NCBI GenBank assembly: GCA_016935555.1
Contig: JAFGQR010000011.1
Span: 21,011-85,010, forward strand
From: Verrucomicrobiota bacterium
GTDB lineage: Bacteria > Verrucomicrobiota > Verrucomicrobiia > Limisphaerales > JAFGQR01
Direction: 5' to 3'
DNA: 64,000 nucleotides
The translations under genes and the position numbers were made by a program. The notes beneath the pieces are model-generated. The model ran no database searches, had not been told where the DNA came from, and saw only the letters and a list, made by a program, of their open reading frames with translations. This document shows, one piece after another, positions 40,801-64,000 of this stretch. The stretch's first letter is position 1. Each line of letters begins with the position of its first letter.

Positions 40801-42716
40801 ACTTCGTCAACAACGCCGTCAAGTTCACCGAGCACGGTGAAATCCGACTCGAAATCCAAAAGCTCGAACGCACCGGCGACAAGGTGCAACTTAAGTTCTC
40901 CGTCCGGGATACCGGCATCGGCGTGACGCGGGAGCAGGCGGCGAAACTGTTCCAGCCGTTCACGCAAGCCGACATGTCCACCACCCGCAAACACGGCGGC
41001 ACCGGCCTCGGTCTCACCATTTGCCGGCGGCTGGTCGAGTTGATGGGGGGGCGCATCTGGCTGGAAAGCGAGCCCGGCACCGGCAGCACGTTCTTCTTCA
41101 CGGTCTGGCTCGGCGTCGGCAGGTCCCAGGGCGCGGGCAAGGCCATTCCTGAGCGGCTCGCGAAGCTCCGCGTGCTCGTGGTGGATGACAACCCCGCCGC
41201 ACGCGAAATCCTGCAGGAAGCGTTGAGCACCGTCACAAGTCGCGTCGATGCGGTGGCATCGGGACGCGAGGCCATCGCCGCCATTGAGCAACAGGACGCC
41301 GGCGACCCCTACGACATCGTGTTCATGGACTGGCGGATGCCGGGCTTGGACGGCGTGCAAACCAGCCGCCACCTCAAGCGCGCCGAGACCTTGAAGCATC
41401 CGCCTCACATCGTGCTCGTCACAGCCTTCGACTGCGAGGAGGCCCGCGAAGAAGCCGAGCGCCTCCAGCTCGAGGCTTATCTCGTCAAGCCCGTCACCCC
41501 GTCCATGCTCGTGGACACACTCGTCAACCTGTTCGCCAATGCCGGGGAAACCGCCGTCGCCCCCCAACCCAGCGGGCACACGATGCGTTTGGACCGGGTC
41601 CGTGTCCTTCTGGTGGAAGACAACGACCTCAATCAGCAAATCGCCGTCGAGCTTCTGGAAGGCGCCGGCGCAAGCGTGCGTGTCGCCAACCACGGACGCG
41701 ACGCGGTCGGGATTCTGGAGTCCGGCCCGCAGCCGCCACCGTTCGACGTGGTGTTGATGGACCTGCAAATGCCCGAAATGGACGGCTACCAGGCGACGGC
41801 CAGGCTCCGGACCGACCCGCGTTTCCGCACCCTGCCGATCGTGGCGATGACGGCCCACGCCACGCTTGAGGAACGCCAGCGCTGTCTCGCCAGCGGGATG
41901 AACGATCATGTCGCCAAACCCATTGACCCGGAACACCTTGTGGAAACGGTGAAGCGCTGCTCCAAACCCCCGCCCGCCGGCGCCCCCGCCAATCCACTTC
42001 CAAACTCAAATCCGTTTGAAGGCCAGATGAACAAGGAACGCGAAAACCGCCCAAAGGCCCCGGGCACGGCCCAAGCAAGCCGCCCCGAAACTCGCGCTCC
42101 GGAACACGACCAGCTTCCCACCATCGCCGGCCTCGACACGAACGACGGTCTGAGCCGCGTCGCCGGCAACCGACCCCTGTACGTGCGCTTGCTTCGCCAG
42201 TTCATGGAACAACAGGCGAACGCGCCGGCGCAAATTCGCGAACAACTTCAAGCCGGCGATGGGGCCGCTGCCGAGCGAACGGCACACACGGTCCAAGGCG
42301 TCGCCGGCAATCTCGGCGCGAACACGGTCCACGCGGCGGCTGCGGCACTGGAAAAGGCGCTCCGCGACCGCCTTTCCTCCGATGAGGTCGAAACCCTCCG
42401 GCAACGCTTCGCGACGGCGCTCGGCGCCCTGCTTGAGCCGCTGCGCGCCATGCTGGGTGAGCCGCCCCCGGCCCCCGCCACGGTTCCTGCCGCAACGGTT
42501 GACCCGGAGCGGGCGGCACCGGTCGTCACGCTCATGCTCAAACAACTCTCGGATTTCGATGCGGCCGCAGCCGAGACGTTGGACGCTCACCGCGCGTTGT
42601 TTGCCGCGCTCCTCCCCGCCGGGCAGTTCGGGCAGTTCGAGCAGCACCTTCAGGGTTATGCCTTCGCCGAGGCCCACGCGCTGCTGGAGGCCGCCGCGCA
42701 GGCGTGGAGGCGGTGA
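37881..42716 (+). CDS. Hybrid sensor histidine kinase: TM-Cache-TM-HAMP-GAF-PAS-PAS-HisKA-HATPase-REC-REC-HPt
   Basis: The 1611-aa protein has a Cache-like periplasmic region between two TM segments and a HAMP domain (RPLASLTRAAAAIEQG). It has a GAF domain, two PAS domains (IIRDITERKRNEQAL; FTDITQQKRAADEL) and an H-box (MSHEIRTPMNAIIG). The G-boxes are DTGIG and GGTGLGL. Two receiver domains (VLVVDDNP...FMDWRMPGLDG; VLLVEDND...LMDLQMPEMDG) are followed by a C-terminal HPt (AHTVQGVAGNLGA). Confidence 0.95.
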   Translation: MSRLLSGHSIARRLPIGVGLAAGLVLGLTVWFNDRVSRDELERQTNAKAVAEIAAAARQLDEFLMRIGTLPRAIAVRQRAFGHDPDPGMVPFLRGLLHHMPEEEVYGLYIAYDEKDWRDPTACLAIHRRFWPELTPVDYDFHDPRQEWYHGPKRTRRFYVTEPYFDEGAGNVSMVSLTTPVFDQATNFLGVAGADLALDRIRAMVRTIRLSEGRRGRTSEFACLVSRSGKIIAHPRAELMLRKGFAGADLASRPGGEVAAAKPEGFAATLDNNERRRIYWATSPLTGWKILLNIPEDAILDPVRQLTLRSAVAGLLGLLVLVFVVATVARRFTRPLASLTRAAAAIEQGAFREEMLGDLPAHRDEIGELAHSLRKMAREIQAREQSLADLNQNLERTVTQRTAELTARAGELERLTRQSEERAVLESSLSALNTSLRGNLTSAQVAEKGLAGAVEFLGAPAGALFVAGADGALHRVAAHAYPASAGLPESFAPGSGVVGQAAQSRHPLGTAPGDERLRVHFGFGAVAPAHVVAYPLLADDAAVGVLELCLFKPLTESQTRWLEKAAGTVANALRFALESDERKEAEERVNAYFTSSSDGLLILSAEHQFIHANEAALALFGFQRMADLAHCGPGMLSPERQPNGELSREAALDRIKTAMRMDKPYRFDWVHKRRDGTEFPCEITLIRIMLRGNPAQLTIIRDITERKRNEQALAESERRVRRILETSTEGFCRVDNEGRLIEVNDSMCQILGRVRDQVLGRHIYDFADAENAGIFRENIARRAKGEFGSYEVSFLRPDATLVPCRVNASPLVDEHGVKQGSFGMFTDITQQKRAADELHEAKARAEEATRLKSMFLANMSHEIRTPMNAIIGLSHLALKTQLSPKQRDYVSKVHNAGTSLLAVINDILDFSKIEAGKLDLETTSFKLDDVLSSVITLTAQKAHEKGIEFLAHVAQGIPDVLLGDPLRLGQILTNFVNNAVKFTEHGEIRLEIQKLERTGDKVQLKFSVRDTGIGVTREQAAKLFQPFTQADMSTTRKHGGTGLGLTICRRLVELMGGRIWLESEPGTGSTFFFTVWLGVGRSQGAGKAIPERLAKLRVLVVDDNPAAREILQEALSTVTSRVDAVASGREAIAAIEQQDAGDPYDIVFMDWRMPGLDGVQTSRHLKRAETLKHPPHIVLVTAFDCEEAREEAERLQLEAYLVKPVTPSMLVDTLVNLFANAGETAVAPQPSGHTMRLDRVRVLLVEDNDLNQQIAVELLEGAGASVRVANHGRDAVGILESGPQPPPFDVVLMDLQMPEMDGYQATARLRTDPRFRTLPIVAMTAHATLEERQRCLASGMNDHVAKPIDPEHLVETVKRCSKPPPAGAPANPLPNSNPFEGQMNKERENRPKAPGTAQASRPETRAPEHDQLPTIAGLDTNDGLSRVAGNRPLYVRLLRQFMEQQANAPAQIREQLQAGDGAAAERTAHTVQGVAGNLGANTVHAAAAALEKALRDRLSSDEVETLRQRFATALGALLEPLRAMLGEPPPAPATVPAATVDPERAAPVVTLMLKQLSDFDAAAAETLDAHRALFAALLPAGQFGQFEQHLQGYAFAEAHALLEAAAQAWRR

Positions 42717-42740
42717 CGTGTTTGTTGTCGTGCCCCACCC

Positions 42741-43919
42741 ATGAAAAAGCTCTCCGACTGCCGTGTCCTGCTGGTGGACGACACCAAGGTGAACCTGGAC
42801 ATTCTCGTCGAGGGCCTGAAAAGCGATCACAAGCTGAGCCTGGCGCTGAATGGCGAAACCGCCTTGCAGATCGCCGCGCGAACCCCCCCCGATCTGGTGT
42901 TGCTGGATATCGTCATGCCGGGTCTGGACGGCTACGAAGTCTGCCGCCGCCTGCGCCAGATGCCGGAGACCGCCGACGTGCCGATCATGTTTCTGTCGTC
43001 GCTCGAAGAGGTGCAGAATAAGACGCGCGGGTTCGAGGTGGGAGCAAACGATTATCTCACCAAGCCGTTCGAAATGCTCGAGGTGAAGGCGCGCGTGCGT
43101 TCCCTGCTCAAGGCCAAGGCTTACAACGACGCGGTCAAGGAACACATGGCCGGCGAATTGCGTGTCGCCAGGGAAATCCAGATGGGAATGGTGCCCCGCG
43201 ATTTCGCGGCGGTGGAGGCGGCTTATCGGGTCGGCTTCGGTGCCGTGCTCGAGCCGGCTCGGGAAGTGGGCGGCGACCTTTATGGCATTTGCACGGCCGA
43301 CCCCGAGCGCCTGGTCATCTTCCTGGGCGATGTTTCCGGCAAGGGCATCCCGGCTTCGATGTTCATGGTGCGCGCCATCACCCTCGCCCGCCTGCTGGCG
43401 CGACAGACTGTGGAGCCGGAACGCATCCTGGCGCGGCTGAACGACGAACTCGCGGCCGACAACCCCTCATGCATGTTCGTGACGTTCCTCTGCGCCGTGT
43501 TTGAACCCCGGTCGCGCCGGTTCATCCTGGCCAACGCCGGCCATTGCTGGCCGGCGCTCCTTCCCGCACACGGCGCGCCGCGCTGGGTCGGCAAGAATCT
43601 CGGCACCGCCCTGGGTCTGGAACCCGGCCTCACGTTTCAGCGCGCCGAGCTGGCGCTGGGTGAAGGCGACGCTGTGATCTTCTACACCGACGGCGTGACC
43701 GAGGCCTTCAATCCCCAGGAGGCATTGTACGGCAGCGAACGCTTGCTGGCAGACGTCACGGCATTTGCCGGCCAACCCGCGCCGGCCATCACGGCTGGAA
43801 TCCTGCGGCAGGTTCGTGGGTTCGCCGCGGGCGCACCGCAATCCGATGACATCGCCATTCTCACCTTGAAAGTCGGCGGCGGGCGCGCAGACCCTTCCGG
43901 ACAGGAACCCCGCGCATGA
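42741..43919 (+). CDS. Response regulator with PP2C/SpoIIE-type Ser phosphatase output (RsbU-like)
   Basis: The REC domain reads VLLVDDTKVNLDIL...LLDIVMPGLDGYEV...DYLTKPF. The PP2C domain reads REIQMGMVPRDF...GGDLYG...FLGDVSGKGIPASMFM...FYTDGVTEA...DDIAILTLK. Confidence 0.9.
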   Translation: MKKLSDCRVLLVDDTKVNLDILVEGLKSDHKLSLALNGETALQIAARTPPDLVLLDIVMPGLDGYEVCRRLRQMPETADVPIMFLSSLEEVQNKTRGFEVGANDYLTKPFEMLEVKARVRSLLKAKAYNDAVKEHMAGELRVAREIQMGMVPRDFAAVEAAYRVGFGAVLEPAREVGGDLYGICTADPERLVIFLGDVSGKGIPASMFMVRAITLARLLARQTVEPERILARLNDELAADNPSCMFVTFLCAVFEPRSRRFILANAGHCWPALLPAHGAPRWVGKNLGTALGLEPGLTFQRAELALGEGDAVIFYTDGVTEAFNPQEALYGSERLLADVTAFAGQPAPAITAGILRQVRGFAAGAPQSDDIAILTLKVGGGRADPSGQEPRA

Positions 43920-44335
43920 AGCTGGAGTTGCGTGCCACGTTGGAGGAGGTCATGCGCGCCGTCGAAGCCCTGCGGGAATTCGCCAGCGCCCAGGGCGTTC
44001 CGGAAAAGACCACCCTCGGCCTGGCCCTGGCGCTCGAAGAGTGCGCCGCCAATATCGTCAATCACGCTTATCAACGCAGCGCCCAACAGCGCTTTCAAGT
44101 CCTCCTCGAACGGCATGACGACTCCCTGCTCATCGAACTGCGCGACCGCGGGCCGGAATTTGATCCCACCGCCGTGCCGCCACGCGACCAGCGAGCGATC
44201 GACCAAGACGGGCCGGGCGGCTGGGGCATCGACCTGGCGCGGCGTCACGTGGACGAGATTCGCTACCGGCGCGAAGCCGGGGAGAACATTCTGCGCCTGC
44301 ACAAGCGGCTTGTCGCGCCCGCCGGCCGGGCGTAA
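43916..44335 (+). CDS. RsbW/SpoIIAB-like anti-sigma-type serine protein kinase (HATPase_c_2)
   Basis: The start shares an ATGA overlap with the PP2C gene. It has an N-box (LEECAANIVNHAY), DRGPEFDP and a G-box (GGWGIDLARRHVDEI). Confidence 0.85.
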   Translation: MKLELRATLEEVMRAVEALREFASAQGVPEKTTLGLALALEECAANIVNHAYQRSAQQRFQVLLERHDDSLLIELRDRGPEFDPTAVPPRDQRAIDQDGPGGWGIDLARRHVDEIRYRREAGENILRLHKRLVAPAGRA

Positions 44336-44391
44336 CCTCCAACTCCAGTGTCAACCAAGTCCGACTGCCAAACCAAAGAGTCCAAACCCCC

Positions 44392-44778
44392 ATGCCACTC
44401 GACATTCAAATCCAAAAGAATCCCACCGGCGAGAACGCTGCCGCTCTGACCGTCACACTGATCGGCAGCCTCGACACCGTCACTGCGCCCGACCTGGAGC
44501 GCCAGCTTGCCCCCTGGCTGGGCGGTCCCGTCGCGGACATCGTCTTTGACCTGGCCCAGCTGAAATTCATCAGCAGCGCAGGCCTGCGCGTGTTCTCCGT
44601 CACGCGCAAGACGCTCAAGGAACGCGGGGGGCAGGCGTCGTTCCTGAACTTGCAGCCGCAGATCAGGGAAGTGTTTGACATCATCAAGGCCTTGCCCGGC
44701 GTGGCCATTTTCAAGGATGTCGCCGAACTGGACCGTTACCTGGCAGCGCGTCAACGCTCGCATCGGGAGGCGACCTAG
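44392..44778 (+). CDS. STAS-domain anti-sigma-factor antagonist (RsbV/SpoIIAA-like)
   Basis: The 128-aa protein carries DLAQLKFISSAGLRVF, with the conserved phosphorylatable Ser position. Confidence 0.9.
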   Translation: MPLDIQIQKNPTGENAAALTVTLIGSLDTVTAPDLERQLAPWLGGPVADIVFDLAQLKFISSAGLRVFSVTRKTLKERGGQASFLNLQPQIREVFDIIKALPGVAIFKDVAELDRYLAARQRSHREAT

Positions 44779-49129: not shown

Positions 49130-50902
49130 ATGCAACCTGCCCATTGGGTGTTCATCATTCTGGGGCTGACGCTGGCAGCGTTCATTTGGGGCCGGATTCG
49201 GTACGACTTGGTCGCTCTGCTGGCGCTGTTCTCGGCTGTGGTGGCGGGGGTGGTGCCGGCGGCGGACGCCTTTGCCGGGTTCGGCCATCCGGCCGTGATC
49301 ACCGTGGCGGCGGTGCTGGTGTTGAGCAAGGCGTTCCAGCAGTCGGGCTTGGTGGACCTGATCGCCGGCCAGACGCTCAAGGCGGGCGGAGCCGTCATGG
49401 CGCAGTTGGCGGTGTTGACGGGCGCGGTGGCGGTCCTCTCGGCGTTCATGAACAACGTGGGTGCGCTGGCGCTTCTCTTGCCGGTGGCGCTGCGCATGGG
49501 CCGCGAACACGGGCATCCCCCCTCGCTGCTGCTCATGCCGCTGGCGTTCGGTTCCCTGCTCGGAGGCCTGATGACGCTCATCGGCACGCCGTCCAACATC
49601 ATCCTCTCCGCCTATCGCGCAGAACATGCCGGCGCGGGCTTTGGCATGTTTGCCTTCCTGCCGGTGGGCGGGGGCGTGATGCTGGCCGGGTTGCTGTTCC
49701 TGGTGCTGCTTGGCTGGCGGCTCACGCCAAGGCGCAAGGGCCAAAGCTCGCCCGACGAGCTGTTCGAAACCGCCAATTACCTGAGCGAACTCGAGGTCGC
49801 CCAGGGTTCCAAAGGCGCCGGCTGGACGCTGCGGGAATTGCAACAAGCGTGCGGCGAACCCATCCCCGTCGTGGCGGTGTTGCGCGGGGAGAAGCGCCAT
49901 CCAGCCTATGCGTTTCGCAGCGCGCTGCGCCCGGCCGACGTGCTGGTGGTGGAGGCCGAGCCGGAGGAGTTGCAACTCATCGAGGACAAGAGCGGGTTCA
50001 AGCTGGCCGGCGGCGCGAAGTTCGCCGACAAGCTCGGCGAAGCCCGGGATCTGCAGTTGGTGGAAGCAGTGGTGCGGACCGATTCCCCGATGATCAAGCG
50101 GACCGTGGCGCAGTTGCGTCTCCTGGACCATCACGGGCTGCACCTGCTGGCAGTGGCGCGGGCGGGCGGACGCTTGAAACAGCGGCTGAACGCGGTGCGT
50201 TTTGAGCCGGGTGACGTGTTGTTGGTGCAGGGCGACGAGAGGGACATGGCCGAGAGCCTGGCCGAGCTGGGCTGCCTGCCCTTGGCCAGCCGCAATCTCG
50301 CGCTGGGCAAGCCGCGGCGCCTGGTCACCTCGGTGACACTGTTTGGGGCGGCCGTGGGCTTGATGCTTGCGGGATGGTTGCCGGCCTCGGTGGCGTTGAG
50401 CATGGCGGCGGCGGGTTCGGTGCTCGCCCGCGTGCTGCCGCTGCGCGAGGCCTACAAGGGCATCGATTGGCCAATCATCGTGTTGCTGGCGGCCATGATT
50501 CCCGTGGGAGAAGCCCTGGAAACCAGCGGCGGCGCTCAAAAAGTGGCCGACGGCCTGTTCACCCTGGGACGCACCTGGCCGCCGGCGGCCACCCTGACGC
50601 TGTTGTTTGTCATCACGATGCTGTTGTCCAATGTCATCAACAATGCCGCCGCTGCGCTGCTCATGGCCCCGATCGCCTCCAAGCTGGCGGCCGGGCTGGG
50701 CACGGCCGCGGATCCGTTTCTGATGGCGGTGGCCGTCAGCGCGTCGTGTGCGTTTCTCACGCCGATCGGCCATCAATCCAACACATTGGTCATGGGGCCG
50801 GGCGGCTACCAATTCCAGGATTACTGGAAGGTTGGCCTGCCGCTTACACTGGTGGTGGTGGCGACCGCCGTGCCGCTGATCTTGCTGGTCTGGCCCCTGT
50901 GA
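49130..50902 (+). CDS. SLC13/DASS-family permease with two central TrkA-C (RCK_C) domains
   Basis: The 590-aa protein has an N-terminal half with FGHPAVITVAAVLVLS and two RCK_C-like segments (LRPADVLVVEAEPEEL; FEPGDVLLVQGDERDM). The C-terminal transporter half contains SNVINNAAAALLMAPI. Confidence 0.9.
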   Translation: MQPAHWVFIILGLTLAAFIWGRIRYDLVALLALFSAVVAGVVPAADAFAGFGHPAVITVAAVLVLSKAFQQSGLVDLIAGQTLKAGGAVMAQLAVLTGAVAVLSAFMNNVGALALLLPVALRMGREHGHPPSLLLMPLAFGSLLGGLMTLIGTPSNIILSAYRAEHAGAGFGMFAFLPVGGGVMLAGLLFLVLLGWRLTPRRKGQSSPDELFETANYLSELEVAQGSKGAGWTLRELQQACGEPIPVVAVLRGEKRHPAYAFRSALRPADVLVVEAEPEELQLIEDKSGFKLAGGAKFADKLGEARDLQLVEAVVRTDSPMIKRTVAQLRLLDHHGLHLLAVARAGGRLKQRLNAVRFEPGDVLLVQGDERDMAESLAELGCLPLASRNLALGKPRRLVTSVTLFGAAVGLMLAGWLPASVALSMAAAGSVLARVLPLREAYKGIDWPIIVLLAAMIPVGEALETSGGAQKVADGLFTLGRTWPPAATLTLLFVITMLLSNVINNAAAALLMAPIASKLAAGLGTAADPFLMAVAVSASCAFLTPIGHQSNTLVMGPGGYQFQDYWKVGLPLTLVVVATAVPLILLVWPL

Positions 50903-51121: not shown

Positions 51122-51583
51122 TCACAGTTTCCTGAGCACGGCAAAGAACTGCAGGGCCTCCTGATCTTGAGGATCAGCCAGAAGCCTTTGCTTCATGCGC
51201 AAGGACTCGATCTCGGTCACATCCTCCTGCTCGGCGATGTAGTAGATTGGTTTCGGGCGCTCACCGTAAATGGCATAGCAATACCAGTTCATCAGAAAGG
51301 GCTCGCCATTCTTGCGGTAGTTCCAGGTTTGGCCGTGAAAAACCTCGCGTCGGAGGAGCTTTTTCTTCAGCAGGGTCAACACAGCCCGGTCGGTGTGCTT
51401 GCCCTGCAGCATGCGAGGCGTCTTGCCGGCCAGCTCCTCCCGGCCGTAACCGGTCATCCTCAGCCAGGCCTGGTTTACATAAATGATGCGCGGGCCGGAC
51501 GGAGCTTCAAGGTTCGTGTCCGTGACCATGATGCCTCGTCGCAAGTTCTCCAATACGATCAGCCAGTCAAATTTCAGTTGCAT
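51122..51583 (-). CDS. Short LOV-like PAS protein lacking the adduct-forming cysteine
   Basis: The sequence RIIYVNQAWLRMTGYGREELAGKTPRMLQGKHTD aligns with the LOV core (as recalled for YtvA: [33 protein letters not shown]). The downstream flavin-contact-type N/N/Q positions appear conserved (NYRKNGEPF, MNW, AEQEDVT). Confidence 0.8.
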   Translation of the reverse strand: MQLKFDWLIVLENLRRGIMVTDTNLEAPSGPRIIYVNQAWLRMTGYGREELAGKTPRMLQGKHTDRAVLTLLKKKLLRREVFHGQTWNYRKNGEPFLMNWYCYAIYGERPKPIYYIAEQEDVTEIESLRMKQRLLADPQDQEALQFFAVLRKL

Positions 51584-52151: not shown

Positions 52152-53645
52152 TCAGCTTTTCCCGGTCAGGTCCGTGGCCTTCATCCCGGCGAGTTGAGCA
52201 TAGTTTCGGAATTCGCGCTCCACGTCCCCCAGAATGAAGAGCTGGTGAAATCCGAGCACATCGCGCGTGTCTTTCACTCCGTCAAGGGCAACTTCGACGG
52301 AGGTGCGGCAGCCTCCGGCTTCCTCGTACGGGTCATGGCCCTGGGGATCGGGCTCGATGTTGCTCACGATCTTTCCCGCCCCGACGCGAATCGTGTCGTA
52401 GTGGCCGCTGGGTATCTCCATCACCGTCATGCGTTCACCCACCGGCCAGAGCACCTGGGTCGCAACGCCGCGGTCCGGTTCCTGGTGGCTTCGCAGGATA
52501 AATGGCATCGGCGGTTTGTCGAATCCCGCCAGTCTCGTGGCGCACGCGCAGTGGGCGCCCCCGAGGGTATTGTTGACCGTCAGAGGAAAGGGATCCTGTT
52601 GAAAACCGGGCCGTTGCACCAGCAAGTGGGTGAGCCGCGAACTGAGTGCCGCGTGTTCATCCGCTTCACACGCCGCCACGATCCCTTCGTCGCGCAACCG
52701 TGAAAAGGCAAGGCAGGGCTCCCACAGATGACCTTTGGAACCGATCGGCCGTGAGACCAACGGCAGGCAGTTTATCGAAATCCCATCGCACTTCTCCTCC
52801 TCCATCAGTGCACGCAGCACCACGTAGATGTTGGCCGCGTTCAGCACGTCTTCCCCGGTCGGTTCGATGATCGCCTTGGCGTTCTTCTGATAGTAATCGG
52901 CTATGGCCCGGACCTTCTCCGTGACGACGCTTTTATGCGCCATGTCGCACAGGGCCTGTTCCGGGTAGTCAAGCAGTTTCGTGCCCAGATGCTCCACGGT
53001 CTTCTCAGCCTTCTTATTGCCCTTTACGATCAGCAAACGCGTCTGCTTCATCCGCCACACGCTGTTCAGCATCCGCAAGCCGTGGGCCAGCCAGTTTTCG
53101 TGTTGGAAGGCACTCACAAAGACGCCGGCAATGCCGCGCGTTGCTTGGAGGTGGCCCGTGAACGAAGTGCCGACAGGACTGAAGAGAATGGTGGGTATGT
53201 TGCCACGTTCCTTTGCGATGCGGTTGAGGTGGGGCCACGCTTGATTGAGGCTCATTGCGGTGACAATGAGGCCGTCGGGATTCTCCTCTTGGACGGTCTT
53301 CAGGAACGCGGTAACGGCGTTTTCATCCTTCAGCGGCTCCTGCGTAAGACGCAGATCCACCCCCAGGTCTTTCGCCGCGCCCCGCAATATCCGGGTGTAG
53401 TGCTCTTGATGGACCGCGTTGTCCCAATCGGCTCCCGGCCACCCCATGAAGTAGCGGTTCTGATCCGGCCGGGCAAATCCGGCCCGCACCACGGGTTTGC
53501 CGCCCGGCGGAGACGCGGCAAACATCGACGAAGCAACCTCAAACAAGTCCAAGTGCGCCGCGGTGGCCGCCGCACCGGCCGTGGTCAGGAACTTCCGCCG
53601 GCTCATCGGACATCCCAAACATTTCATTCCGTTTCGCGTTTTCAT
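52152..53645 (-). CDS. TAT-signal protein with sugar-isomerase (FucI/AraA)-like features (tentative)
   Basis: It carries a twin-arginine motif (MSRRKFLTTAGAAATAAHL). The C-terminal half has isomerase-like segments (CDGISINCLP...GIVAACEADEHAAL). Start options are 53684, 53645, 53627 and 53606. Confidence 0.55.
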   Translation of the reverse strand: MKTRNGMKCLGCPMSRRKFLTTAGAAATAAHLDLFEVASSMFAASPPGGKPVVRAGFARPDQNRYFMGWPGADWDNAVHQEHYTRILRGAAKDLGVDLRLTQEPLKDENAVTAFLKTVQEENPDGLIVTAMSLNQAWPHLNRIAKERGNIPTILFSPVGTSFTGHLQATRGIAGVFVSAFQHENWLAHGLRMLNSVWRMKQTRLLIVKGNKKAEKTVEHLGTKLLDYPEQALCDMAHKSVVTEKVRAIADYYQKNAKAIIEPTGEDVLNAANIYVVLRALMEEEKCDGISINCLPLVSRPIGSKGHLWEPCLAFSRLRDEGIVAACEADEHAALSSRLTHLLVQRPGFQQDPFPLTVNNTLGGAHCACATRLAGFDKPPMPFILRSHQEPDRGVATQVLWPVGERMTVMEIPSGHYDTIRVGAGKIVSNIEPDPQGHDPYEEAGGCRTSVEVALDGVKDTRDVLGFHQLFILGDVEREFRNYAQLAGMKATDLTGKS

Positions 53646-54002
53646 GATGATCCCTTTCGCTGATGGAAAGTCTGATTCCCGCACACGAAACCGAGCCTAA
53701 CATTGGCCGAATGGTAAATCAAGAGGCTAACGACCCACCCCTGTTCAAGGGGCGCATCGCAGTGTTTGGCGTAGTGCGCCCCGGTTGTGAAGGGCATCGC
53801 ATGCCACTGCGAACCAAGCAGGTTGCGCGAGAATGGGTGGTTCCTCACGCCGTATGGCCCCGTTCTCAGGCCCGAAAGGCGAACCACGGTCAAGCCACAG
53901 GGGAATTGGTTCGCTTCGGCCAGGCTTATGCTAATCTGCAGTTGCATCTTGCAGTTGCCGTCTTTGGACCATGGTCGCCATCTGCAGCCGGCGGGGGGGG
54001 GA

Positions 54003-54815
54003 TTAGACGTAGGTCTTCTCCAACAACGCAGCTGCACTTTCGTCGAGCATTTCCCGCCGGCGCATTTCCTCAAAGCGCGCAAGCAAATCCGGCACACGAA
54101 GGCGCTGTTTGTCGGCTCCTTCGAACCGACAGGCCACGGCGCCGCGATGCACCATTACGATGCGGTCGCCAAGGTTGACGGCTTGCTGCATGGAGTGGGT
54201 GACCATGAGCGTGGTGAGCTTGTGCCGGCTGACGATGTCTGCAGTGGCACGAATAAGCAGATCGGCGCTCTTGGGATCCAGCGCGGCAGTGTGTTCGTCC
54301 AAGAGCAGCAATGCTGGCTTGAGCCATGTGGCCATCAGTAGCGTGAGCGCCTGGCGCTGACCGCCGGAGAGACTGCCGATGGCGTTGCCGAGCCGGTCTT
54401 CCAAACCCATTCGCAATTCTCGGACGCGGTCGCGGAGTTCGTCCATGAGTCTTCTGGAGAGCGCCCAGCCCAGGCCGCGTCCCTGGCCGCGACGGGCGGC
54501 GAGGGCGAAGTTCTCGGCGATGGACATGTTCGGTGCGGTGCCGGTGAAAGGGTTCTGGAACACGCGACCGATCAGCCGCGCCCGCCGATGTTCCGGCCAG
54601 CGCGTGATGTTCTCTCCGGCCAGTTCGATCTTGCCTTGGTCGAGTTGAAACGTGCCGGCGACGGCGTTCAACAAAGTGGATTTGCCAGAACCGTTGCCAC
54701 CGAGGATGATCAGGAACGCGCCTTCCGGAATGGTGAGGCTGACTCCGCGCAGCGCGCGGACCTCGTTCACAGTACCCGCGTTGAAAGTTTTGCAGATGTT
54801 GGAGACAGTAAGCAT
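54003..54815 (-). CDS. ABC transporter ATP-binding protein (COG1101-type, partner of COG4120/COG2984 systems)
   Basis: It has Walker A (GGNGSGKSTLL), the signature motif (LSGGQRQALTLLMA), Walker B (LLLLDEHTAALD) and an H-loop (MVTHS). Confidence 0.9.
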   Translation of the reverse strand: MLTVSNICKTFNAGTVNEVRALRGVSLTIPEGAFLIILGGNGSGKSTLLNAVAGTFQLDQGKIELAGENITRWPEHRRARLIGRVFQNPFTGTAPNMSIAENFALAARRGQGRGLGWALSRRLMDELRDRVRELRMGLEDRLGNAIGSLSGGQRQALTLLMATWLKPALLLLDEHTAALDPKSADLLIRATADIVSRHKLTTLMVTHSMQQAVNLGDRIVMVHRGAVACRFEGADKQRLRVPDLLARFEEMRRREMLDESAAALLEKTYV

Positions 54816-55781: not shown

Positions 55782-57032
55782 TCACGTCACCAGCGGCGCG
55801 CACCAGCAGGCGCCGCGAAAGAAACAACTCTCGCCAGCGCCGTTGGGGTCGCGCCAATCGTTCAGCAGATGCAGCACGCCCAGCACGTGCTCGCTTTCAA
55901 ACAGCGGCTCGAGTGATTCCGCCAAGCTCACCTTGCCTTTGCGGAGCGGACGATACGGGAAGGCCGCCGCGTGGAAGTGGCCGCAGATGTCGCCCGTGAG
56001 GACCAGCGGTTTAAGCAATCGCGGATGCAACGCACGTGAGCCGGTGGCTGCGAGGCCGACGATGAGGCTGACGGAATTGGCGAACGCCGCTTCAGCGGTG
56101 AAGCTCAACCAGTCACGCACCTCCGGGAAGGCAAAAAGGTTTCGCGCACCGGTGACTACTGGCGGGCTGGCAGGCGTCTTTTGCAGCGACGCGCCCACCA
56201 GTGAAGCCGTCTCCGCCAACATGACGATGCCTGCCGCGTCGGTGTTTGCAGCGTCGAGACAGGCTTTGATCACGGCGCTCAAGGTCAGACTGGATTGCTC
56301 CGGGCCTTTGTCGAATCGCAGCAGCCGCGCAAAACCACCACGGCAAACAACGCCGTAGGCGACCTTCACCGTCGGCGTCAGCGCGCCTTGAAGCAGCATG
56401 TAATCCGGCTTGTTGGCACCGTCAGCTGGCTGGCAAACGACGGCACCGCCTGCGCCGAGAAATTCACCGAATGCCGCGCCTTCCAGGTCGCTGGTCGAAG
56501 CGAAAGCGCCAAGGCCGAGACCGATTGTATCCGCAGCAAACGCGACGTTTTCACAGTCGGCGTCCTTCGCGGTGCCTTCAAGCCACGCTGCTGAATCTCC
56601 GGGCCATTGAACGCGGAGCGTCGCGCCGGGGTTCAACTCGAACAGTTGCGCTGTTGCGCCCGCTGGCGGCAGCGCGACGTGCTGGGTGGGTCGTTCGGGC
56701 GCTGCCGTTGCCATTACTCTTGCCGTGTCTTCGCCAACGTGAAGCCGCGTCTCCAGGCCCACCAGCTTCAAGACACTGCGCACAGCGCTCGACGCCCTGG
56801 CGATGATGAGCCGCCCTTGAATGGCGTTGAGCTGACGCGAGTGCAGCACGAGAATCCGGATGCCGGCGGAGCTGAGGTAGTCCACGTCCATCATGTCAAG
56901 CGCGATGACGTGGTAGCCGGCGCGCACCGATTCGGTCAGGGCATTGGCGACGTGGTCGCTCCAGACGGCGTCCATGCGGCCTTTGAGCTTCAGGTCGAGT
57001 TGATCGTCGCGTGCTGTGCGAGTGATTTCCAT
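55782..57032 (-). CDS. STAS-domain protein fused to a ~300-aa C-terminal domain of unknown function, encoded inside the ABC operon
   Basis: The N-terminal ~105 aa are STAS (LDLKLKGRMDAVWSDHV...ALDMMDVDYLSSAGIRILVLHSRQL...SAVRSVLKLVGL). I cannot assign the remainder (...GAFASTSDLEGAAFGEFLGAGGAVVCQPADG...GHFHAAAFPYRPL...) to any family. Confidence 0.8.
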   Translation of the reverse strand: MEITRTARDDQLDLKLKGRMDAVWSDHVANALTESVRAGYHVIALDMMDVDYLSSAGIRILVLHSRQLNAIQGRLIIARASSAVRSVLKLVGLETRLHVGEDTARVMATAAPERPTQHVALPPAGATAQLFELNPGATLRVQWPGDSAAWLEGTAKDADCENVAFAADTIGLGLGAFASTSDLEGAAFGEFLGAGGAVVCQPADGANKPDYMLLQGALTPTVKVAYGVVCRGGFARLLRFDKGPEQSSLTLSAVIKACLDAANTDAAGIVMLAETASLVGASLQKTPASPPVVTGARNLFAFPEVRDWLSFTAEAAFANSVSLIVGLAATGSRALHPRLLKPLVLTGDICGHFHAAAFPYRPLRKGKVSLAESLEPLFESEHVLGVLHLLNDWRDPNGAGESCFFRGACWCAPLVT

Positions 57033-57043
57033 GAGCAGCGTGG

Positions 57044-60001
57044 TTAGGGTTTGGTCGGGTCGGAGATTTCTTGCGCCTGCCGCAACAGCTCATCCGGGAT
57101 GGTGATGCGAACCGCTTGGGCGTTCCTCGCGTTCACCAGCGTCTGCACCTTACGCGGTGGAGAGAACGGAATTCGCGCCGGACTCTCTCCGCGTATCAGG
57201 GCAGCGACTTTAAACGCAGTCTCTCGTCCGGCGTCGTAATAGTCGCGGGCCAGTGCCACGGCGGCGCCCTGTTTGACGCCGGCCCCGTGGCAACTGAACA
57301 GCGGCAACCGCGCTTGTTCCGTGGCGCGCGCGATGATGGGGAAGCCAGCGACCGAAAGGTTGTCAATGATCTGAACCACGGCATCCAGCCGGCGGCCGCA
57401 CAGTGACAGCGCCGCGTCGGCCAACTCCCCCGCGCAGTTGGCCGCGACGGTTTCCACCGTTAATCCGCAACGAACGGCTTCGCGGACGAACATTTCCTTG
57501 TTCGCCACGGAGTTTGCCTCCGCCGGACAAAACAGCGTTCCGACGTGCTTGAACTGAGGGAAATATGTTCGCAACAACTCCGCCATTTCCCGGTACGGCC
57601 CGAGTGTGTAAACGCCCGTGATGTTCGGCAGATGGTCCTGATCCGATTGGCCCGCGCCCGCGACGAACGGGTCGGCCACGACCGTGAACACGATGGGCGT
57701 GTCACGAACCTTCTGTATACCGGCTTGGAGTGCCGGCGTGCCATAGACGACATAGAGGTCCACACCTGCCGTCTTGGCGGAATCATAAAGCGAGCTGATT
57801 GCCGCCATGTCACCTTGGGCTGACAACGTTTTCATCGTGAAGTTCACCCCGTCCTTCAAACCCGCCTCCTTCAAACCGTCCGTCAGCCCGCGCATGGCGT
57901 CCTCGACCATGACGGATTCGATGTAGGAAAGCTGCTGGATCCGCCACTTTCTTGCCGGTGGTTGCGCGACGGGTGGGGCCGGCGGCTTTTCGAGCGTTTG
58001 CATGGCCAGCACCGCAGGCGGGAAGGTGACGCCCAGTTTGCGTGCGACGTCCATGTTCAGGATCACCTTCTCGTCGCTCACGTTTCGCATCGGAATTCTC
58101 GCGGGCTCCTCGCCTTGAAGCACGCGAGCGAGCGGTTCGGCAGCGGCGAAACCAGCCGCGTAGTAGCCAACACCCACCACGGCCAGCGCGCCGCGATTGC
58201 AAAAGTCCGGCGAGTCAATGACCACCGGAATGCGCGTGGTGGCGAGTTGGCCGGCGAGGCCGTCGAACGCCTGGTAAGCCGTGTTGTCGCCGGGGATATA
58301 CACCGCTTCCACACGCCGGGCAGCGAGCGATTGCGCAGCTTGCACCACCTCGCTCGTATTGTTCGCAATGGCCTCGACCAGTTCGACGCCGTGCTTCGGG
58401 CACAACTCCCGCAGCACCGTGACCACCTTCACCGAGTTGGCCTCGGCGTTGTTGTAGAGCGTCCCGAGCCGTCGGAATGTCGGGAACGTGAGCTTTAACA
58501 TCGTGACCGCTTTCTCAATGGGCGGGAACGAGCCGATCCCGGTGACGAACGGCAGGTGATCCTCGAAGCTCTTGCCCGCGCCGGCGGCAATCGGATCCGT
58601 GCAGTAAGTGAAAACGACGGGTTTGTGGCGCACGCCAGCGCAAGCGGCCGTCAGCACGGGCGTCGAAAACGTGGAGATCACGTCCGCGTCGCTTGCGTCG
58701 AGTGACTGCAGCATCGCCGGGATGCTGCCAATCTCGCCGTTGGCATGCATCTTCTGAACCTCAAGATTTTGTCCTTCGACAACACCGAGCTTTCGCAGTC
58801 CATCCATCAGTCCAGCAATGGTGCTGTCCGTGCCTTCGTCAGGACCAAAGTAAGCGATGCCGATTTTGAACGGGCGGCCGGATTTGGAAACAACCGGACG
58901 CGGCTTGCTCTGGGTGGCGACGGACGCGGTTTGGTGGACATCTTTTTCCACGTTGCCGTCTTCTCCGAGGATGAGTGCAGCGCGGGCACGCAGATCGTCG
59001 GTAAACCGCCACGGGTCGCGAAGGTTCTTGAGAACTTGTTTGTTCAACATCAGGTGCTCGGGCATGAAGTTGGTGATGACCAGCGTGGCGGAGTCGACGC
59101 CGCCAAGGATCCCGGCGGCAATGTCGCCCACCACTTCGCCAACTTCAAAGTAGTTTGCGCCGAGATCGAAAAGTGAGCCGTCGCGTACGTTGCCCGAAGT
59201 GTTGGAAAAGACGGGAATCCTGGCCCGGCTCGCCGAGCCGGTGAGCGCAGTGATCGCGTTGAGCACCGTCACATCCGCGCCCGCCCAGAAGGCCTGCGCG
59301 CCGCGCGCCACCAGCGAATCCGCGGCTTCGCGCACGTCCTTGCTCTGGTCCACGTTGGCTTCGAGCAACTGGATGCCCAGTTCCTTGCAGACCTTCCGGG
59401 CTTTGGCGGTGCAGACCTCGGAATTGGCTTCAGCGGGGTTCCAAACGACTCCGACGACTTTCAGGTCGGGCCACTGCCGCCTGGCTTCGCGCAAAATCGA
59501 TTCCACCGGTTGGAACGTGCCGACGCCGGCCAGCCACGGCGGTTTGTTGGTGGAATTCATTTGCCGGATGCCGACGCCCGCGGCGGCGGGATCCGTCACG
59601 CCGCCGAAAACATGAATGGCGCGGCCATCCTTGTTGGCGTTGGCCACGCATTGGAGCGAAAGAGTGCTGATGGAGATCACCATCTTGAAACTGCCGTCGG
59701 TAACGCGCTTGGCTATGGTGTTGGCCGTCGGCAGATCGCCCTCGGCGCTGAACCGTTGCAGGGCGATGCGTCCACCGTCCTCGTAACCGGCGGCGGCGAG
59801 CCGAGCCAGAATGCCGCGCTCCACTTCATCCAGCAACGCGATTGAAGCGTGCTTGAGAATGGCGACGGGAATCTTCGCCTGCGCCGACAACGCGCCATTG
59901 CGCGCCCTTTCACGCGAATGGAGGTCCGACAATAGCAGCGTCAACGCCGCCGCCACGAGCAGGACCAGCGACAGGAAAACACGGCTAAAAACTTGTTTCA
60001 T
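57044..60001 (-). CDS. Membrane-anchored ABC substrate-binding protein with three tandem COG2984/PF04392-type domains
   Basis: The start is set at MKQVFSRVFLSLVLLVAAALTLLL (TM anchor). Three homologous modules each contain a TDP-AAG-G box and a PAEANS box. Module 1: VFGGVTDPAAAGVG...VWNPAEANSEV. Module 2: VVFTYCTDPIAAGAG...LYNNAEANSVK. Module 3: IVFTVVADPFVAGAG...LFCPAEANSVA. Confidence 0.85.
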   Translation of the reverse strand: MKQVFSRVFLSLVLLVAAALTLLLSDLHSRERARNGALSAQAKIPVAILKHASIALLDEVERGILARLAAAGYEDGGRIALQRFSAEGDLPTANTIAKRVTDGSFKMVISISTLSLQCVANANKDGRAIHVFGGVTDPAAAGVGIRQMNSTNKPPWLAGVGTFQPVESILREARRQWPDLKVVGVVWNPAEANSEVCTAKARKVCKELGIQLLEANVDQSKDVREAADSLVARGAQAFWAGADVTVLNAITALTGSASRARIPVFSNTSGNVRDGSLFDLGANYFEVGEVVGDIAAGILGGVDSATLVITNFMPEHLMLNKQVLKNLRDPWRFTDDLRARAALILGEDGNVEKDVHQTASVATQSKPRPVVSKSGRPFKIGIAYFGPDEGTDSTIAGLMDGLRKLGVVEGQNLEVQKMHANGEIGSIPAMLQSLDASDADVISTFSTPVLTAACAGVRHKPVVFTYCTDPIAAGAGKSFEDHLPFVTGIGSFPPIEKAVTMLKLTFPTFRRLGTLYNNAEANSVKVVTVLRELCPKHGVELVEAIANNTSEVVQAAQSLAARRVEAVYIPGDNTAYQAFDGLAGQLATTRIPVVIDSPDFCNRGALAVVGVGYYAAGFAAAEPLARVLQGEEPARIPMRNVSDEKVILNMDVARKLGVTFPPAVLAMQTLEKPPAPPVAQPPARKWRIQQLSYIESVMVEDAMRGLTDGLKEAGLKDGVNFTMKTLSAQGDMAAISSLYDSAKTAGVDLYVVYGTPALQAGIQKVRDTPIVFTVVADPFVAGAGQSDQDHLPNITGVYTLGPYREMAELLRTYFPQFKHVGTLFCPAEANSVANKEMFVREAVRCGLTVETVAANCAGELADAALSLCGRRLDAVVQIIDNLSVAGFPIIARATEQARLPLFSCHGAGVKQGAAVALARDYYDAGRETAFKVAALIRGESPARIPFSPPRKVQTLVNARNAQAVRITIPDELLRQAQEISDPTKP

Positions 60002-60072: not shown

Positions 60073-60198
60073 GCCGTATTTTGAATCTCGTCGCCCGGAC
60101 CGGCAAGCCTGAATTGTCATTTGGCGCCGGTAAACTTCCCTTGTCGTTTTCTGCTGCGAAGTGCAGACTGGCCCGTGTGCGGCAATGGCAGGTGAACC

Positions 60199-60531
60199 AT
60201 GGAAACTCAGAACTTGGCTAACGCAACTGTCGTAAAACTGATCGAACGAATTGATTCGGTCTCGTCCCGGGAGGTTGAAGCCACTCTCCAAAACATCATT
60301 GTCGGCGGAGCACGCAATGTCATCTGCGACTTCGCGGCGGCCAAATACATCTCCAGCGCGGGACTGCGCGTGTTGTTGGTCGTGGCCAAGACGCTCAAAA
60401 AGGGCGGGGGGCAGTTGCTCATCGTGTGCGCCAGGACCGGATATGTTTATGAGGTCTTGGAAACGGCCGGTTTCACCAGCATGATCCCGGTGTTCGCATC
60501 CGTCGCCGAAGCCACTCAGGCGGCCAAGTGA
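60199..60531 (+). CDS. Single-domain STAS anti-sigma-factor-antagonist-like protein
   Basis: The 110-aa protein carries DFAAAKYISSAGLRVLLVVAKTLKKGGGQ. This closely parallels the STAS protein at 44392 (DLAQLKFISSAGLRVFSVTRKTLKERGGQ). Confidence 0.85.
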   Translation: METQNLANATVVKLIERIDSVSSREVEATLQNIIVGGARNVICDFAAAKYISSAGLRVLLVVAKTLKKGGGQLLIVCARTGYVYEVLETAGFTSMIPVFASVAEATQAAK

Positions 60532-60550: not shown

Positions 60551-61015
60551 ATGAAAACCACCGTCGCTGATGTCATTTTGAAGTTCCTGGAAGCCGAGGG
60601 TGTGGAGTACTTGTTCGGGATTCCGGGCACAACCATAGTGCCGTTGCTGGACGCCACGAACCGCAATAAAGCCGTCCGGCCCATCCTGACCAAGCATGAG
60701 GAAGGCGCGGCTTTCATGGCGGACGGCTACGCGCGGGTCAAATGTGGGATCGGGGCTTGTTTCGCGACCTCCGGTCCCGGCGCCACCAATCTGGTGAGCG
60801 GCGTGGCCAATGCTTACATGGACAATGTGCCGATTCTCGTCATGACCGGCCAAGTCGAGACATCCCTCTATGGCAAGGGCGCGTTCCAGGATTCGTCCAA
60901 AGCCGGCGTTGATGCGGTCAAAATGTTTGATCGTCAGACTATTGATCGAATACTCAAAGGAGACTTGACCAGACATCGGACTTCAATCCATATGCGCATC
61001 CACAAGACACCGTGA
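60551..61015 (+). pseudogene. Truncated thiamine-diphosphate enzyme (acetolactate-synthase-like), N-terminal TPP_enzyme_N domain only
   Basis: The sequence VADVILKFLEAEGVEYLFGIPGTTIVPLLDA...HEEGAAFMADGYARV...ATSGPGATNLVSGVANAYMDNVPILVMTGQV is the N-terminal Pyr domain. Similarity stops near 60930, where GC drops, and a stop codon follows at 61013-61015. Confidence 0.6.
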
Positions 61016-62749: not shown

Positions 62750-64000
62750 TCAACCCTTTTCGTTGAGGACCTTGACGAAAACCGCGGTGAGGTCGTCCTC
62801 CTGGGGGCAATCCCCGGCAAACTCGCGCACGGCCTGATAGAGCAGCTTGACGAGGGTTTGGGCGGGCTCGTGGCGTTTGGCGCGGACGAGGTCGAGCATG
62901 CGTTCGGTGCCGAACAACTCGTCGCGGGCATTGACGCTTTCCTCGATGCCGTCGGTGGACAGCAGGAGGATATCGCCCGGTTTGAGGGGCAGTTCGGGGG
63001 AGGAGCGGTAGGTGGTGTCGGGGTGGAGTCCGAGCGGCATGCCGCTGGGGGCCAGCCGGTGCTTGACGTGACCGTCGCTGCCGATGAGGTGGGCTGGCGG
63101 GTGGCCGGCGCTGGCGTAAATCAGGGTGCGGTTTTTGGGGTCGAGAGCGGCCCAGAAGAGGGTGATGTAGCGTTCGCGGCCGACGTCTTCGGCGAGGACG
63201 GCGTTGGCCACGCTGAGGATTTCGCCGGGATCATCGCGGCGTTTGCTCACCAGCCGCAGGTAAGCCCGCGTCTCCGCCATCAGCATCGCCGGTCCCACCC
63301 CGTGGCCGGTCACGTCGCCGACGACGATGCCGAGGCGTCCGCGGAGCATGGGCAGGTAATCGAAGTAATCGCCCCCGGTGGCTTCGGTGGGGTAGGAGGT
63401 GCCGCTGATGTCGAAGCCTTTGAGTGCGGGAGCGCTTTTGGGAAAGAGATGCTGCTGGATTTCGCGGGCGACACGGAACTGTTCCTGGTGGTCGCGCAGT
63501 TCCCGTTCGGCGCGTTTGCGTTCGGTGATGTCGCGGACGAACCCGACGAAGCGGCGTTCGCCATCGAGGATCATGTCGCTGTAGCTGACCTCGATGGGGA
63601 TTTGGGCGCCGTCCTTGCGCAAGCCGACGGTTTCGGTGGCGCGCCAGTTCATGCGTTTGATGCCGGTTTGGAGGTAGCGGGTGATGCCGGTGCGGTGGCT
63701 GCCGCGCAGCCGTTCGGGCTGGAGCATGGTCAGGTCGCTGCCAATGAGTTCCTCCGGCGCGTAGCCGAACACGTCGCGCACCGCCGGGTTCACGAACAGG
63801 ATCCGGCCCTCCGGGTTCATGAGGATGACGGCGTCCGGGCAGGTTTCCCACAGCAGGCGGTAGCGCTGTTCGCTTTCGCGCAGGGCTTTCTTGGCGTCGC
63901 GCTGGCTGGCGCGGATGGAGGCTTCGCGCAGTTCGCGTTCCACGGCGGGGACCAGCCGGTTCAAGTTGCCTTTCATCAGGTAATCGTGGGCGCCGGCCTT
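62750..64000 (-). CDS. REC-PAS-PP2C (SpoIIE-type) phosphatase response regulator (N-terminus beyond right edge)
   Basis: It has a PAS domain (YRLLWETCPDAVILMNPEGRILFVNPAV...VRDITERKRAE) and a PP2C domain (REIQQHLFP...GGDYFDY...VGDVTGHGVGPAMLM...STDGIEES...DDLTAVFVKV). The reverse complement of 63961-64000 reads KAGAHDYLMKGNLN, which is the end of a receiver domain. Confidence 0.85.
   Translation of the reverse strand, partial: KAGAHDYLMKGNLNRLVPAVERELREASIRASQRDAKKALRESEQRYRLLWETCPDAVILMNPEGRILFVNPAVRDVFGYAPEELIGSDLTMLQPERLRGSHRTGITRYLQTGIKRMNWRATETVGLRKDGAQIPIEVSYSDMILDGERRFVGFVRDITERKRAERELRDHQEQFRVAREIQQHLFPKSAPALKGFDISGTSYPTEATGGDYFDYLPMLRGRLGIVVGDVTGHGVGPAMLMAETRAYLRLVSKRRDDPGEILSVANAVLAEDVGRERYITLFWAALDPKNRTLIYASAGHPPAHLIGSDGHVKHRLAPSGMPLGLHPDTTYRSSPELPLKPGDILLLSTDGIEESVNARDELFGTERMLDLVRAKRHEPAQTLVKLLYQAVREFAGDCPQEDDLTAVFVKVLNEKG

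Follow-up and report, generated by a model that had tools for sequence, protein, structure and literature searches.

The closest described relatives of the system reported here are the TrpXYZ/CD0873-type ATP-binding cassette (ABC) importers, which include Streptococcus suis TrpX, Clostridioides difficile CD0873 (6HNI), Vibrio cholerae VC_1101 (3LKV) and Streptococcus pneumoniae SP1069 (3LFT). Their binding proteins are single-domain members of the PF04392 family, about 300 amino acids in length and either lipoproteins or soluble, and their partners are one BPD_transp_2 permease and one ATPase. The characterized PF04392 systems are nutrient importers; the ligands of 6HNI, 3LKV and 3LFT are Tyr, Phe and Trp, respectively, and side-chain preference is set by two positions, Glu263 and Tyr279 in CD0873 numbering (PMC6816091). 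Here we describe a related locus in a 64,000-nucleotide stretch of DNA from a Verrucomicrobiota bacterium (contig JAFGQR010000011.1), referred to below as the window. In this locus, three modules of the same binding-protein family follow one another on one apparently N-terminally anchored chain, the partners are again one BPD_transp_2 permease and one ATPase, and the operon holds an extra gene for a STAS-domain protein that we call STAS-X. The receptor architecture alone is moderately interesting, being common yet undescribed; the conserved STAS-X cassette is the main new point. This conserved partner gene, the most distinctive feature of the system, was absent from the original prediction made for the receptor gene.

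The literature that we found on tandem binding domains deals mostly with GlnPQ, in which the domains are fused to the permease. The receptor resembles GlnPQ in that several different binding domains, probably held at the membrane, are arranged in series and would serve one translocator, with a broader substrate range as the outcome. The two systems differ in the class of the domains, which are class II (SBP_bac_3-type) in GlnPQ and class I (PF04392) in the receptor. They also differ in construction: the receptor chain has a gene to itself and begins with an N-terminal helix of its own, its permease is encoded two genes downstream, and its relatives contain up to five modules. In the full-text literature, with most subscription journals outside its scope, we found no description of tandem PF04392 proteins or of free-standing multi-domain receptors.

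The genes for the receptor, STAS-X, the permease and the ATPase lie in this order on one strand, separated by gaps of 11, 12 and 9 nucleotides (Table 1). The permease is encoded by a gene of its own, which agrees with the original view of the receptor as a free-standing, anchored polypeptide. As read from its translation, the ATPase has intact Walker A (GGNGSGKST), LSGGQ, Walker B (LLLLDE) and H-loop motifs. On the other side of the receptor gene, and divergent from it, is a small STAS gene, and a gene of this kind adjoins the cassette in most related loci. Promoter and terminator scans of the operon gave counts at chance level. A role in anti-phage defense was considered and rejected, given that PADLOC returned no match for the receptor or for STAS-X.

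Table 1. The receptor operon, its protein domains and the partner-switching genes found near it; coordinates are positions in the window.
Feature	Coordinates	Strand	Evidence
Triple solute-binding receptor gene, 985 aa, three PF04392 modules	57044..60001	-	Pfam, 3 stretches, E 2e-144
Putative N-terminal hydrophobic anchor and juxtamembrane motif, residues ~5-30, ..FSRVFLSLVLLVAAALTLLLSDLHSR	59912..59989	-	Hydrophobicity, motif conservation
Module 1, type A, residues 37-370, including C-terminal linker of ~45 aa	58892..59893	-	PF04392, 130.5 bits; clade A
Module 2, type B, residues 371-675	57977..58891	-	PF04392, 192.2 bits; clade B; best PDB relative 3LKV, E 8e-45
Module 3, type C, residues 676-985	57047..57976	-	PF04392, 168.0 bits; clade C; matches 3LFT, E 4e-36
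STAS-X, 416-aa cytoplasmic protein	55782..57032	-	Pfam: STAS only, residues 8-99
STAS domain of STAS-X, residues 1-101, S54 and S55 invariant	56730..57032	-	Foldseek: SpoIIAA, RsbV
C-terminal domain of STAS-X, residues 112-416, predicted ALDC-like fold	55785..56699	-	AF2 and Foldseek
ABC permease BPD_transp_2, 314 aa	54825..55769	-	PF02653, E 8e-31
ABC ATPase, 270 aa	54003..54815	-	PF00005, E 3e-28
Single-domain STAS protein, 110 aa, divergent from receptor gene	60199..60531	+	PF01740, E 1e-16
PAS-SpoIIE (PP2C) phosphatase	62750..63976	-	Pfam; link to cassette by proximity alone
REC-SpoIIE phosphatase, HATPase_c_2 serine kinase, STAS	42741..44778	+	Pfam

The pairing of the receptor with STAS-X is conserved in related loci. 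In six homologous contigs, whose receptors contain 2, 3, 4 or 5 modules, a gene for a STAS protein of 406-416 amino acids directly follows the receptor gene in every case, and five of the six contigs continue with the permease and ATPase genes. Genes for partner switching are found beside the cassette, accompanied in some cases by Che-like clusters. When species-representative genomes were scanned with STAS-X as the starting point, 52 loci were recovered, all of them in metagenome-assembled genomes (MAGs), from Verrucomicrobiota, Planctomycetota, Binatia, Acidobacteriota, Deltaproteobacteria, Methylovulum, Hydrogenedentota, Nitrospira and Wallbacteria. Good flanks were available for 24 of these loci. 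A PF04392 gene lies directly upstream of STAS-X in all 24, the permease and ATPase genes lie downstream in 23, and a gene for a HATPase_c_2 kinase is found within about 10 kb in 17. The number of modules in these well-flanked loci is one in 5 loci, two in 4, three in 12, four in 2 and five in 1.

The reverse test was conducted on 80 metagenome loci selected via the receptor. STAS-X comes directly after the receptor gene in 56 of 64 loci; by receptor type, it immediately follows all 23 of the triple-module genes (23 of 23), 4 of the 7 double-module genes and 25 of the 30 single-module genes. In six of the eight exceptions the cassette is present, either with its genes arranged differently or at the end of a contig. 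In L091 (5947-10476) and L094 (9062-12631), in both cases on the reverse strand, genes for a HATPase_c_2 kinase, STAS-X, the permease and the ATPase follow one another in this order and are convergent with a double-module receptor gene, so that the kinase gene is immediately upstream of STAS-X; L091 additionally carries a single-module solute-binding protein gene after these four. L103 and L107 have STAS-X first, then the permease and ATPase genes, and the solute-binding protein gene last.

Two further arrangements were observed in the related loci. Che-like clusters (CheA with REC, CheB, CheW and CheR) together with REC-SpoIIE adjoin the cassette in L001 (16488-22955), L002 and L005 (1-3032), which hints that a chemosensory-type pathway feeds the same partner switch in some Verrucomicrobia. 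In a Methylovulum MAG (L003, 1-4768), a single PF04392 gene directly precedes genes for a HisKA-HATPase-REC kinase, a GAF-SpoIIE phosphatase and a HATPase_c_2 kinase, and this cluster lies 5 kb upstream of a triple-receptor cassette. PF04392 proteins may therefore also act as sensor partners of kinases.

STAS-X itself belongs to a family of about 2000 homologs of about 415 amino acids (90% clusters). When the C-terminal domain was searched alone against 1.84 billion representatives, 747 clusters (50% identity) were recovered, nearly all with proteins of 395-435 amino acids in which the domain occupies residues ~110-410. This nearly uniform length and domain position indicate that the architecture of STAS-X is fixed. 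The STAS domain is recognized by PF01740 (E 2e-12) and by TIGR00377 (54.9 bits versus a cut-off of 53.45). Among 81 diverse members of the family, S54, S55, D210, H352, H354, D392 and W410 are invariant, and E190, E274, R306, E314, H388, R394 and S402 are nearly so. Lined up by eye, S55 presumably corresponds to the phosphorylated serine of SpoIIAA, S58 (DSSG versus LSSAG).

A first AlphaFold2 (AF2) model of STAS-X, based on a 32-sequence alignment, reached a predicted local distance difference test score (pLDDT) of 68, and Foldseek matched only its STAS part. The model obtained from the diverse 81-sequence alignment reached a pLDDT of 92 and a predicted template modeling score (pTM) of 0.91. 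Against the PDB, Foldseek matched the N-terminal domain to SpoIIAA, RsbV and RsfB with TM scores of 0.8-0.89 (1th8_B, 6m36). The C-terminal ~300 residues matched alpha-acetolactate decarboxylases (ALDCs), with 1xv2_C at E 1.9e-6 and 6j92_B at a target TM score of 0.66 over ~290 columns; 5yho, 6inb, 4bt2 and 5xne were also matched. The C-terminal domain of STAS-X is thus predicted, on the basis of the AF2 model, to have an ALDC-like fold.

Membership of the C-terminal domain in the ALDC family by sequence was considered and rejected: no Pfam match was found at E<=10 in 24 members, a PDB profile search gave no match, and hhalign of the domain versus ALDC returned a probability of 1.9% for a weak 31-column match. 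In this weak match, GLGAF..FGE190F of STAS-X is aligned with FGIGTF..DGE62L, the catalytic Glu motif of ALDC. ALDC and the related DUF1907 enzymes hold Zn via a His-x-His motif and a third His and possess a catalytic Glu and Arg (PMC9090609, PMC12337341). The STAS-X domain is like ALDC and the DUF1907/C11orf54 beta-keto-acid decarboxylases in its predicted fold, and its invariant His-x-His and conserved Glu and Arg are reminiscent of their Zn site. It differs from these enzymes in having no significant sequence similarity to them, in the spacing of its third conserved His and in its fusion to a STAS domain. Within the literature scope given above, we found no paper on ALDC together with a STAS domain and none on STAS-X.

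Two groups of characterized STAS proteins invite comparison. MlaB of the MlaFEDB system is a STAS protein that, like STAS-X, is encoded with an ABC transporter; it acts as the cytoplasmic accessory subunit of that transporter, and it is among the Foldseek matches (6xbd_K, 7ch7_E). However, MlaB is a bare STAS domain of ~100 amino acids that serves a lipid transporter without a classical binding protein, whereas STAS-X has 416 amino acids and a predicted ALDC-fold domain, apparently retains the SpoIIAA-type serine and resembles SpoIIAA and RsbV more. With the SpoIIAA/RsbV-RsbW-RsbU systems and their HptB-HsbR-HsbA variants, STAS-X shares the STAS fold, apparently the serine motif, and in most related loci the proximity of partner-switching genes such as those for HATPase_c_2 kinases and SpoIIE/PP2C phosphatases. 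The classical antagonists of these systems are single-domain proteins (~110-120 amino acids) that are not encoded between transporter genes, and a sigma factor target was not identified for STAS-X, which is also far larger than they are.

Directly after the small STAS gene in the window is a 154-amino acid open reading frame (60551-61015, forward strand) with a TPP_enzyme_N match only (E 1.7e-39). It corresponds to the N-terminal third of an acetolactate-synthase-like enzyme; the remainder is missing and the next open reading frames have no Pfam match. It may be a truncated gene or a pseudogene. Such a fragment is a curious neighbor given the acetolactate-decarboxylase-like fold predicted for STAS-X.

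With its ATG start, the receptor open reading frame encodes 985 amino acids; an alternative TTG at 60106 would give 1020. The MKQ start is shared with P0001, a 100%-identical protein encoded in a MAG of the Verrucomicrobia, and with the closest homologs. A domain scan of the receptor returned PF04392 only, plus a sub-threshold Peripla_BP_4 match. The proposed layout of an N-terminal anchor followed by three modules of ~300 amino acids was borne out by one hydrophobic segment and three full-length PF04392 matches. These matches, which had been expected to be separate, all lie far above the gathering cut-off of 25.9 bits (Table 1), and modules 1, 2 and 3 scanned singly cover positions 3-277, 1-288 and 12-291 of the 293-position profile.

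The modules are well diverged from one another. Module-versus-module BLASTP gave identities of 28%, 25% and 32% (E 7e-29, 9e-20 and 1e-47), and self-comparison of the receptor gene at the DNA level gave chance-level matches only, of <=60 nucleotides. Protein identity of 25-32% in combination with no DNA self-similarity indicates that the repeat is ancient and not an assembly duplication. Three landmark boxes had been proposed to recur in each module, and two of them are real: the DP..AG boxes, which begin at residues 137, 469 and 777, are each followed ~50 amino acids later by an AEANS box, at residues 188, 517 and 825. The third, an 'ARIP' box, mixes two non-homologous positions. ARIPVFS of module 1 (residue 260) has TRIPVVI (589) and ARLPLFS (897) as its aligned counterparts, whereas ARIPMRN (634) and ARIPFSP (942) constitute a separate, later box that is aligned with SATLVIT of module 1.

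The sole hydrophobic segment of the receptor is N-terminal (residues ~8-24), and a segment of this kind is kept in 105 of 113 homologs. The receptor has no lipobox-like motif, and only one of the 113 homologs has one. The anchor motif, L+RLxLGLxLIxxAxxxLLLSD, is kept across phyla in single- and multi-module relatives alike, which favors a retained, functionally important helix over a disposable signal peptide. We infer from this conservation that the N-terminal segment is probably an uncleaved membrane anchor.

A homolog search of 5.8 billion proteins (E<=1e-10) returned 978 relatives, from Verrucomicrobiota, Planctomycetota, Methylococcales and other groups, that are annotated generically as 'ABC transporter substrate-binding protein'. 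Among the best 120 of the 978, 75 are triple, 23 quadruple, 21 double (some of these partial) and one, a 1692-amino acid protein from Rariglobus, quintuple. The triple form occurs in Verrucomicrobiota and Methylococcales, while Planctomycetota and Hydrogenedentota have related forms that differ in module number. Hence the rarity implied for the triple form in the original prediction does not hold; as far as can be seen, this architecture is frequent in nature yet undescribed.

When 411 modules from the relatives were clustered together with the three solved family members, three position-specific clades were obtained, with A first, B in the middle and C last, and this arrangement is shared by groups as far apart as Verrucomicrobia and Methylococcales. 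Most doubles have the order A-C and triples the order A-B-C; most quadruples open with A-B and close with C, and the quintuple is A-A-B-B-C. Clade A supplies the first module in relatives with two to five modules, and clade C the last in nearly all. Within triple proteins, mean identity is 59-64% within a clade and 23-30% between the modules of one protein. The family motifs xDP, ExNS, DN and STP, and the Tyr that matches CD0873 Y279, are kept in all three clades, and each clade has its own signature residues flanking these motifs. Modules 1 and 3 of the receptor each deviate at one family motif, with DVT in place of DNT in module 1 and ADP in place of TDP in module 3.

Sequence mapping of the two specificity positions, CD0873 Glu263 and Tyr279, gives T/Y, S/Y and H/Y for modules 1, 2 and 3, respectively. 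The pockets would therefore differ from one another and from those of the three known binders of Phe, Tyr and Trp. The existence of position-specific clades with different signatures fits the original idea of different ligands being collected for one translocator.

We also considered, and rejected, the name of TrpX equivalog for the receptor. Against NCBIfam NF041285, the modules score 142.8, 160.2 and 148.8 bits, each below the cut-off of 390, and the whole receptor exceeds the cut-off, at 447 bits, through the summing of its three modules alone. A Gln at the position of SP1069 Gln284 makes space for indole (PMC6816091); all three modules have a Tyr at this position, like the Phe and Tyr binders. 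Judged by its sequence, the receptor is a member of the PF04392 family and neither a TrpX equivalog nor a GlnPQ-type protein.

Taking these results together, we favor with moderate confidence a composite reading in which the locus encodes a tethered multi-ligand receptor of a TrpXYZ/CD0873-type ABC importer that is coupled to partner switching through STAS-X. This reading builds on the observed domain content, module clades, operon structure and synteny, and on the predicted fold. The receptor would be held at the inner membrane by its conserved N-terminal helix, with the three class-I modules A, B and C in series. Each module would probably capture its own amino-acid-like solute, and all three would probably hand their solutes to one translocator. 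That the permease and the ATPase have one gene each suggests a translocator made of a permease homodimer and an ATPase homodimer. Through tethering and chaining, the receptor would reach a higher local concentration and accept a wider range of substrates, much as in GlnPQ but with no permease fusion.

STAS-X would be the dedicated cytoplasmic fourth component of this importer, coupling the transporter to the nearby partner-switching kinase and phosphatases. One possibility is that it gates the ATPase, as MlaB does for MlaF, depending on its phosphorylation or on a metabolite bound to its predicted ALDC-fold domain. Alternatively, the RsbW-like kinase may be informed by STAS-X of how active the transporter is. 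The operon PstSCAB-PhoU-PhoR offers a parallel for such a role: it encodes an ABC importer with a cytoplasmic adaptor, PhoU, that ties the state of the transporter to a signaling kinase. The parallel is one of analogy only, the adaptor fold and the two-component chemistry being unrelated to those of STAS-X. The ligands, the docking of each module and every step assigned to STAS-X are what we infer from the observations above.

Several points weigh against this reading. On the receptor side, a signal peptide that is cleaved off is still a possible reading of the N-terminal segment, and motif retention does not prove that all three modules bind ligand or dock. On the side of STAS-X, the STAS domain is nearer to SpoIIAA and RsbV than to ABC-bound MlaB (Foldseek E 4e-6 versus 3e-3). 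The likeness of the C-terminal domain to ALDC is confined to the level of the fold, with 11-13% identity and a root-mean-square deviation of 5-6 A, and the His residues of STAS-X were not matched to the Zn triad, as forced and extended alignments were uninformative. With respect to synteny, 7 of the 24 well-flanked loci have no partner-switching gene within reach, and the only RsbW-type kinase of the window is encoded ~9 kb from the operon. In L004 the receptor and STAS-X genes have no permease and ATPase genes next to them, and in L042 STAS-X lies amid partner-switching genes with no ABC genes.

A rather unlikely alternative is that sensing comes first. In such a 'transceptor', module occupancy would drive the ABC cycle and STAS-X would read it out and titrate an RsbW-like kinase. 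The external solute mixture would in this way control an output such as a sigma factor, and net import would be secondary or absent. The clustering of partner-switching genes with the cassette in most loci speaks for this alternative, as do the Che-like clusters in L001, L002 and L005, the kinase gene immediately upstream of STAS-X in L091 and L094, the SpoIIAA/RsbV type of the STAS domain with its invariant Ser, and the position of STAS-X inside a pure partner-switching operon in L042. Having several binding modules would also suit the integration of multiple signals. However, the ATPase and permease look fully functional from their sequences, the characterized PF04392 systems import nutrients, and the seven loci without a partner-switching gene within reach count against sensing as the primary function as well. 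The sensing and importing functions are not mutually exclusive, and the 'multivalent sensor' suggested in the original prediction gains indirect support from the STAS protein of the operon and the neighboring partner-switching genes.

It is distinctly improbable that one module alone docks on the permease, the likeliest candidates being type C (the last) or type A (the first), with the other modules serving in accessory capture, storage or hand-off or having lost ligand binding. Types A and C are found in nearly all proteins of two to five modules, whereas type B is gained, lost or duplicated, and the DVT and ADP deviations of modules 1 and 3 point in the same direction. Nevertheless, the three clades are about equally well conserved and keep most of the family motifs, and in GlnPQ both tandem domains deliver substrate. 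Finally, we assign a negligible probability to an artefactual triple repeat, whether by assembly duplication or by a mis-called fusion of neighboring single-domain genes: although the source sequence is a MAG and separate adjacent single-module genes exist in some relatives (L046), the modules have no DNA similarity to one another and lie in a single uninterrupted frame with short in-frame linkers, and the triple architecture has been independently recovered on well over 100 contigs from various samples and phyla, so that assembly duplication was rejected. Taken as a whole, the earlier interpretation of the receptor is partly supported.

The RsbW-type kinase gene of the window, whose distance from the operon is counted to the end of the ATPase gene at 54003, belongs to a cluster with REC-SpoIIE phosphatase and STAS genes that is the window's best match to the partner-switching genes flanking the cassette in L001, and we presume that this cluster is functionally linked to the operon. 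Upstream of it on the same strand, and together with it spanning 37881-44778, is a gene for a 1611-amino acid hybrid sensor kinase (dCache-HAMP-GAF-PAS-HisKA-HATPase-REC-REC-Hpt); this gene layout resembles an HptB/HsbR/HsbA phosphorelay-to-partner-switch. Between this cluster and the ABC operon are genes for a CitMHS/TrkA_C anion transporter (49130-50902, forward strand) and a stand-alone 153-amino acid PAS protein (51122-51583, reverse strand). A gene for a 510-amino acid protein with a twin-arginine-like signal (SRRKFLTTAGAAATAA) lies 318 nucleotides downstream of the ATPase gene on the same strand (52152-53684, reverse strand). This protein matches no Pfam family, and sulfoquinovose isomerase is its one NCBIfam match, a weak one (E 6e-6). 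A periplasmic enzyme co-transcribed with the operon is one possible identity for it.

Work on multi-domain translocators has centered on the permease-fused GlnPQ, and the receptor family provides natural variants in which 1 to 5 class-I modules sit on a separate, probably tethered chain, which makes competition, docking order and reach directly testable. For genome annotation, the summed module scores that pass the 'tryptophan ABC transporter' cut-off of NF041285 create a risk that multi-module proteins are automatically mis-named. STAS-X is an uncharacterized family of ~750 clusters at 50% identity whose larger domain has no Pfam model, and it is a candidate physical link of nutrient import to partner-switching signaling.

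More tentatively, and with well under an even chance in our estimation, the cassette may represent a new class of ABC 'transceptor' that extends across several phyla and is composed of a tethered receptor of 1-5 modules, STAS-X, the permease and the ATPase. As part of this same tentative proposal, STAS-X would carry a metal-binding metabolite sensor or enzyme domain with the modeled ALDC fold. If this were true, importer occupancy or flux would be linked to partner switching, and thence to transcription or Che-like pathways, and the number of modules would set the count of external signals that are integrated. The system spans Verrucomicrobiota, Planctomycetota, methanotrophs and other lineages from diverse environmental metagenomes, and it may matter for the sensing and uptake of dissolved organic nitrogen in these bacteria.

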